From assembly GCF_003334385.1 (NCBI RefSeq), contig NZ_QOWN01000160.1: DNA of 624 nt; one strand, 5' to 3'. The number at the start of each line of letters is the position of its first letter. The first letter of the stretch is position 1. Made by a program: the position numbers and the translations under genes. The stretch is from Escherichia coli (GTDB lineage: Bacteria; Pseudomonadota; Gammaproteobacteria; Enterobacterales; Enterobacteriaceae). Positions 174 to 624 of the stretch are shown one piece after another. A model generated the notes under the pieces. The model saw only the letters and a program-made list of their open reading frames with translations. It did not search any database and was not told the origin of the DNA.

Positions 174-624
174 AAGGTTAAGCCTCACGGTTCATTAGTA
201 CCGGTTAGCTCAACGCATCGCTGCGCTTACACACCCGGCCTATCAACGTCGTCGTCTTCAACGTTCCTTCAGGACTCTCAAGGAGTCAGGGAGAACTCAT
301 CTCGGGGCAAGTTTCGTGCTTAGATGCTTTCAGCACTTATCTCTTCCGCATTTAGCTACCGGGCAGTGCCATTGGCATGACAACCCGAACACCAGTGATG
401 CGTCCACTCCGGTCCTCTCGTACTAGGAGCAGCCCCCCTCAGTTCTCCAGCGCCCACGGCAGATAGGGACCGAACTGTCTCACGACGTTCTAAACCCAGC
501 TCGCGTACCACTTTAAATGGCGAACAGCCATACCCTTGGGACCTACTTCAGCCCCAGGATGTGATGAGCCGACATCGAGGTGCCAAACACCGCCGTCGAT
601 ATGAACTCTTGGGCGGTATCAGCC
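174..624 (-). rRNA. rrl: 23S ribosomal RNA, 3'-terminal portion (about E. coli nt 2454-2904; domains V-VI); partial, continues beyond the window's right edge
   Basis: The reverse complement of 409-424 is AGUACGAGAGGACCGG, the universally conserved sarcin-ricin loop. The reverse complement of 519-529 is GGCUGUUCGCC, the A-loop. The reverse complement of 571-580 is CCUCGAUGUC, the peptidyl-transferase centre strand containing A2503-U2506. The reverse complement of 174-188 is GUGAGGCUUAACCUU, the enterobacterial 23S 3' terminus. The mapping E. coli nt = 3078 - window position places all of these at their canonical numbers, so there are no indels relative to E. coli across the region. Confidence 0.97.

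Follow-up and report, generated by a model that had tools for sequence, protein, structure and literature searches.

The A-loop (helix 92) in a partial Escherichia coli rRNA operon that matches rrnA and rrnE exactly

This locus raises the question of whether 11 nucleotides within a 624-nt stretch of DNA (hereafter the window, meaning the whole stretch that was analysed) are the A-loop of 23S rRNA, one of the parts of the ribosome that have been characterised best, and whether the gene that carries them is a normal one. The bases in question, at window positions 519–529, read GGCGAACAGCC on the plus strand and have the reverse complement GGCTGTTCGCC. Judging from the sequence and its setting, we consider it nearly certain that they belong to helix 92, the A-loop, in an Escherichia coli 23S rRNA gene that is normal and functional and would be transcribed from the minus strand. 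For the A-loop, sequence identity, numbering, and the hairpin were computed directly; its part in tRNA binding and its methylation are inferred from papers on E. coli rRNA of the same sequence.

On the minus strand, the window carries the 3′-terminal portion of an E. coli rRNA operon. The Rfam covariance model of bacterial LSU rRNA (RF02541) matches window 624–174 with a score of 484.5 bits (E = 7.4e-158), above the curated gathering score of 50. The match comprises 451 nt and model positions 2480–2925, its 5′ end being cut solely by the window edge. This segment (174–624, minus strand) corresponds to nucleotides 2454–2904 on the 3′ side of the 23S rRNA gene, as supported both by RF02541 and by 100% identity to annotated 23S genes; domains V and VI (H89–H101), with the peptidyl-transferase ring and the sarcin-ricin loop, fall within it. 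It is followed on the same strand by a 93-nt 23S–5S internal transcribed spacer of the rrnA/rrnE type (81–173, minus strand), which in NC_000913.3 corresponds to the interval from the annotated end of rrlE to the annotated start of rrfE, and then by nucleotides 1–80 of the 120-nt 5S rRNA gene (1–80, minus strand), truncated where the window ends. The 5S assignment is based on the rrfE/rrfA annotation and on RF00001 (5S rRNA), which matches window 78–1 on the minus strand (56.6 bits, E = 3.4e-11; gathering score, 38). Rfam and the E. coli annotation both give the order 23S, spacer, 5S on one strand. A weak match to RAGATH-30 (window 65–121, minus strand) reaches from the spacer into the beginning of the 5S gene; it scores 20.1 bits (E = 0.24), short of the gathering score of 59.5, and was rejected as a chance match.

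Positions within the 23S part convert to E. coli numbers by a single rule: the 23S number equals 3078 minus the window position. The rule is exact because the alignment shows no indel in the window relative to rrlB, the numbering reference, within nucleotides 2454–2904. The rrlA gene is 2,905 nt long, and a numbering shift arising from this length was considered and rejected, since the net surplus of 1 nt lies upstream of the window, with the indels near nucleotides 1173–1872. Window position 529 is thus G2549, 526 is U2552, 525 is G2553, and 519 is C2559. The sequence-only reading had equated the reverse complement of 519–529 with E. coli 2549–2559 and had placed U2552 at 526 and G2553 at 525; the Rfam structural alignment and the alignment to the annotated MG1655 23S genes bear out all of these placements. 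The strand assignment and coordinates of that reading are therefore reliable for this window. The value of the confirmation is that of a sanity check, and the coordinate rule can be used for checking other findings in the window.

Helix 92 as a whole occupies window 517–531 on the minus strand (E. coli nucleotides 2547–2561), a delimitation given by the Rfam structure line, the minimum free energy (MFE) fold, and base-by-base mapping alike; the A-loop oligonucleotides in PMC9976906 also span 2547–2561. The 15-nt element consists of a 5-bp stem and the 5-nt loop UGUUC. All five stem pairs are Watson-Crick (A2547-U2561, U2548-A2560, G2549-C2559, G2550-C2558, and C2551-G2557), and the loop (U2552, G2553, U2554, U2555, and C2556) is found as UGUUC on the RNA strand at window 526–522. 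Every helix 92 residue in the window is the E. coli base, and this is the canonical form that underlies the numbering. The flagged 11-mer, GGCUGUUCGCC (519–529, minus strand; E. coli nucleotides 2549–2559), contains all five loop residues and, of the stem, the three inner pairs. The proposal that 519–529 represents the A-loop thus holds, except that the range leaves out the two outer pairs and falls 4 nt short of the whole helix.

A structure-based LSU alignment, which the same reading had named as the appropriate check, was run with the Rfam covariance model. It places the 11-mer on the conserved A-loop hairpin of the model, ucGGCUGUUCGCCga, with the structure <<<<<_____>>>>> and no core substitutions. 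In the RF02541 consensus the core of this hairpin is upper-case, i.e., highly conserved, and the window agrees with it at every core position; the two outer stem pairs alone differ (AU/AU in the window versus uc/ga in the consensus), at positions that covary. Folded as an isolated 19-mer, the hairpin has an MFE of −5.6 kcal/mol with exactly the expected stem and loop (z-score −2.65 relative to shuffles). Allowing up to one mismatch and considering both strands, the 11-mer occurs only once in the window.

What the two flagged loop residues are likely to do can be read from the literature. U2552 is encoded by the A at window 526 on the plus strand (the U itself being on the minus strand), and is the substrate of the 2′-O-methyltransferase RlmE, formerly FtsJ/RrmJ, which makes Um2552 (PMC12123411; PMC9380741), as the earlier reading had stated. 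In E. coli rRNA of the same sequence, U2552 carries the methyl group (PMC12123411; PMC9976906), and when RlmE is lost, growth is severely impaired and a 45S intermediate accumulates (PMC12123411; PMC9380741). With the same sequence in place here, RlmE would be expected to 2′-O-methylate U2552 late in 50S assembly, stabilising the loop fold and helping the 45S intermediate to mature. The description of Um2552 as intact is accurate in that the substrate uridine and the recognised hairpin are present; the methyl group itself is not readable from DNA, and neither the transcription of this copy, nor its incorporation into ribosomes, nor the methylation state of its U2552 is visible in the sequence.

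G2553 is encoded by the C at window 525 on the plus strand (G on the minus strand). Its reported partner, C75 of A-site tRNA, is universally conserved, and the pair is essential: Mutation of either G2553 or C75 abolishes activity, and compensatory changes rescue it (PMC9976906). According to PMC9380741 and PMC9976906, citing Kim and Green 1999, this pairing has been established experimentally for E. coli, and the G2553-C75 pairing in the earlier account agrees with both papers. Two neighbouring residues engage C74, U2554 in a noncanonical pair and U2555 by stacking (PMC9976906). In the mature 50S subunit, then, the hairpin would lie within the A site, part of the peptidyl-transferase centre; by identity of sequence, G2553 would there pair in Watson-Crick fashion with C75 of the aminoacyl-tRNA that comes in, and U2554 and U2555 would probably contact C74.

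Other landmarks of the 23S gene are present in the window. The sarcin-ricin loop, AGUACGAGAGGACC, lies at window 424–411 on the minus strand (E. coli 2654–2667). The modification sites 2457, 2498, 2501, 2503, 2504, 2580, 2604, and 2605 all carry the expected E. coli bases, as do A2602, U2585, and G2583. On the minus strand the landmark positions fall at window 411–424, 473–476, 493–498, 572–580, and 621.

A megablast search of an E. coli-only genome collection found the window in 5,426 out of 5,426 complete genomes. The best match has at least 99% identity in 3,951 records, and among the matches listed the top ones are identical at 624 out of 624 positions. Conservation extends to the surroundings of the hairpin: an exact copy of the 61-nt stretch with the A-loop at its centre (window 500–560) is present in all 5,426 complete genomes. 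There are 41,610 matching places in total, 41,565 of them chromosomal and 45 on plasmids. In the matches listed, the features annotated over the region are '23S ribosomal RNA' and 'rrf: 5S ribosomal RNA'.

We aligned all seven rrn operons of K-12 MG1655 (NC_000913.3) to the window. Two of them, rrnE and rrnA (rrlE/rrfE and rrlA/rrfA), are identical to it at 624 out of 624 positions, including the helix 98 allele and the 93-nt spacer; since the identity extends to both, the window is not assignable to one of the two. The remaining operons differ from it at two (rrnH), five (rrnC), six (rrnB), seven (rrnG), and 10 (rrnD) positions. In one record of K-12 MG1655, the match falls within an operon that has purH and yjaA as its neighbours, namely rrnE; in the coordinates of this locus the 23S gene extends from 3048 to 5951 (2,904 nt) and the match starts at 5501.

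These comparisons bear on how the locus might be read otherwise. K-12 does possess a low-activity paralogue: rrlD carries A2547G/U2548A/G2549U on the 5′ strand of helix 92, i.e., GAU versus the consensus AUG of the window (window 529–531), and ribosomes of operon D are inactive in vitro (iSAT) until these helix 92 polymorphisms are reverted, upon which they reach ∼80% of operon B activity (PMC11046459). The window could in principle be a degenerate or nonfunctional copy of this kind, or a pseudogene, with an A-loop that is present and unused. But it has the consensus AUG at 2547–2549 and G at 2525, matches rrnA and rrnE exactly, and has 10 differences from rrnD, among them the three in helix 92, and strains living on operon A or operon E as their single rRNA operon are viable (PMC11046459). 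The exact rrnA/rrnE match together with the rrnD mismatch effectively refutes a defective rrnD-type copy, and we consider the reading as a nonfunctional copy scarcely credible. To the idea that the 11-mer is a chance match in something else, such as protein-coding DNA, we assign no probability at all. The window does contain two short open reading frames, of 44 and 51 amino acids, but 624 bases would be expected to hold frames of this size by chance, these are the only two, and they lie within the rRNA match, so a protein-coding reading was rejected. Moreover, the 11-mer appears in none of 200 dinucleotide-preserving shuffles even with up to one mismatch allowed, the surrounding 451 nt match the LSU model and are followed by 5S rRNA, and every matching genome listed bears an rRNA annotation at this place.

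The origin of the copy leaves a little more room. Plasmids account for 45 of the 41,610 matching places and the collection covers E. coli only, so that a cloned or plasmid-borne rrn operon, or one from Shigella or another Escherichia, might have supplied the DNA in place of an E. coli chromosome. Against this stand the 41,565 chromosomal places and the exact match to the K-12 rrnA/rrnE spacer, and we regard such an origin as improbable; a plasmid-borne or Shigella source would in any case leave the interpretation of the A-loop unchanged. We think it more improbable still that the copy comes from a nonchromosomal or non-E. coli source that has the exact rrnA/rrnE-type allele, or else that the allele groups in helices 98 and 92 reflect functionally specialised ribosomes; specialisation of this sort, too, would not alter the identity of the A-loop. 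The reading as helix 92 of a normal E. coli 23S gene remains nearly certain, and nothing in the sequence speaks against it.

The helix 92 of rrlB is the same as that of the window, and the two 23S sequences are separated by four substitutions in helix 98 (C2794U, U2796C, A2799G, and G2802A, from rrlB to the window); the rrnB spacer differs from that of the window by one substitution and one 1-nt indel, the spacer being the site of the sole indel. The helix 98 sites, at window 276, 279, 282, and 284 (E. coli 2802, 2799, 2796, and 2794, respectively), divide the seven operons into two allele groups. The window shares U2794, C2796, G2799, and A2802 with rrnA, rrnC, rrnE, and rrnH, and rrnB, rrnG, and rrnD have C, U, A, and G at these sites. 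The differences have the look of two compensatory pair swaps in the helix 98 hairpin, one at 2794:2802 and the other at 2796:2799. Further sites that separate operons are window 161 (G or C/A), 148 (the 1-nt indel), 91 (A/G), and 69 (A/C, within the 5S gene).

Two variants, in helices 91 and 92, have been described before. At window 553 (E. coli G2525, helix 91), MG1655 rrlC has A (G2525A) in place of the G that the window shares with the other operons; reverting this helix 91 polymorphism more than doubled the activity of operon C (PMC11046459). In rrlD, the loop UGUUC, with U2552 and G2553, is the same as in the window, and it is the stem pairs that are broken by GAU; in silico, a 25-mer with the rrlD variant prefers a different hairpin. 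This helix 92 variant is found exactly in 43 out of 5,433 E. coli matching records, all of them laboratory strains of the K-12/MG1655 type. Both the rrlD/helix 92 variant and the heterogeneity among operons in helices 91 and 92 are already published (PMC11046459). The window has the consensus at both the rrlD-type helix 92 and the rrlC-type helix 91 sites, and its A-loop is an ordinary feature, already known in full.
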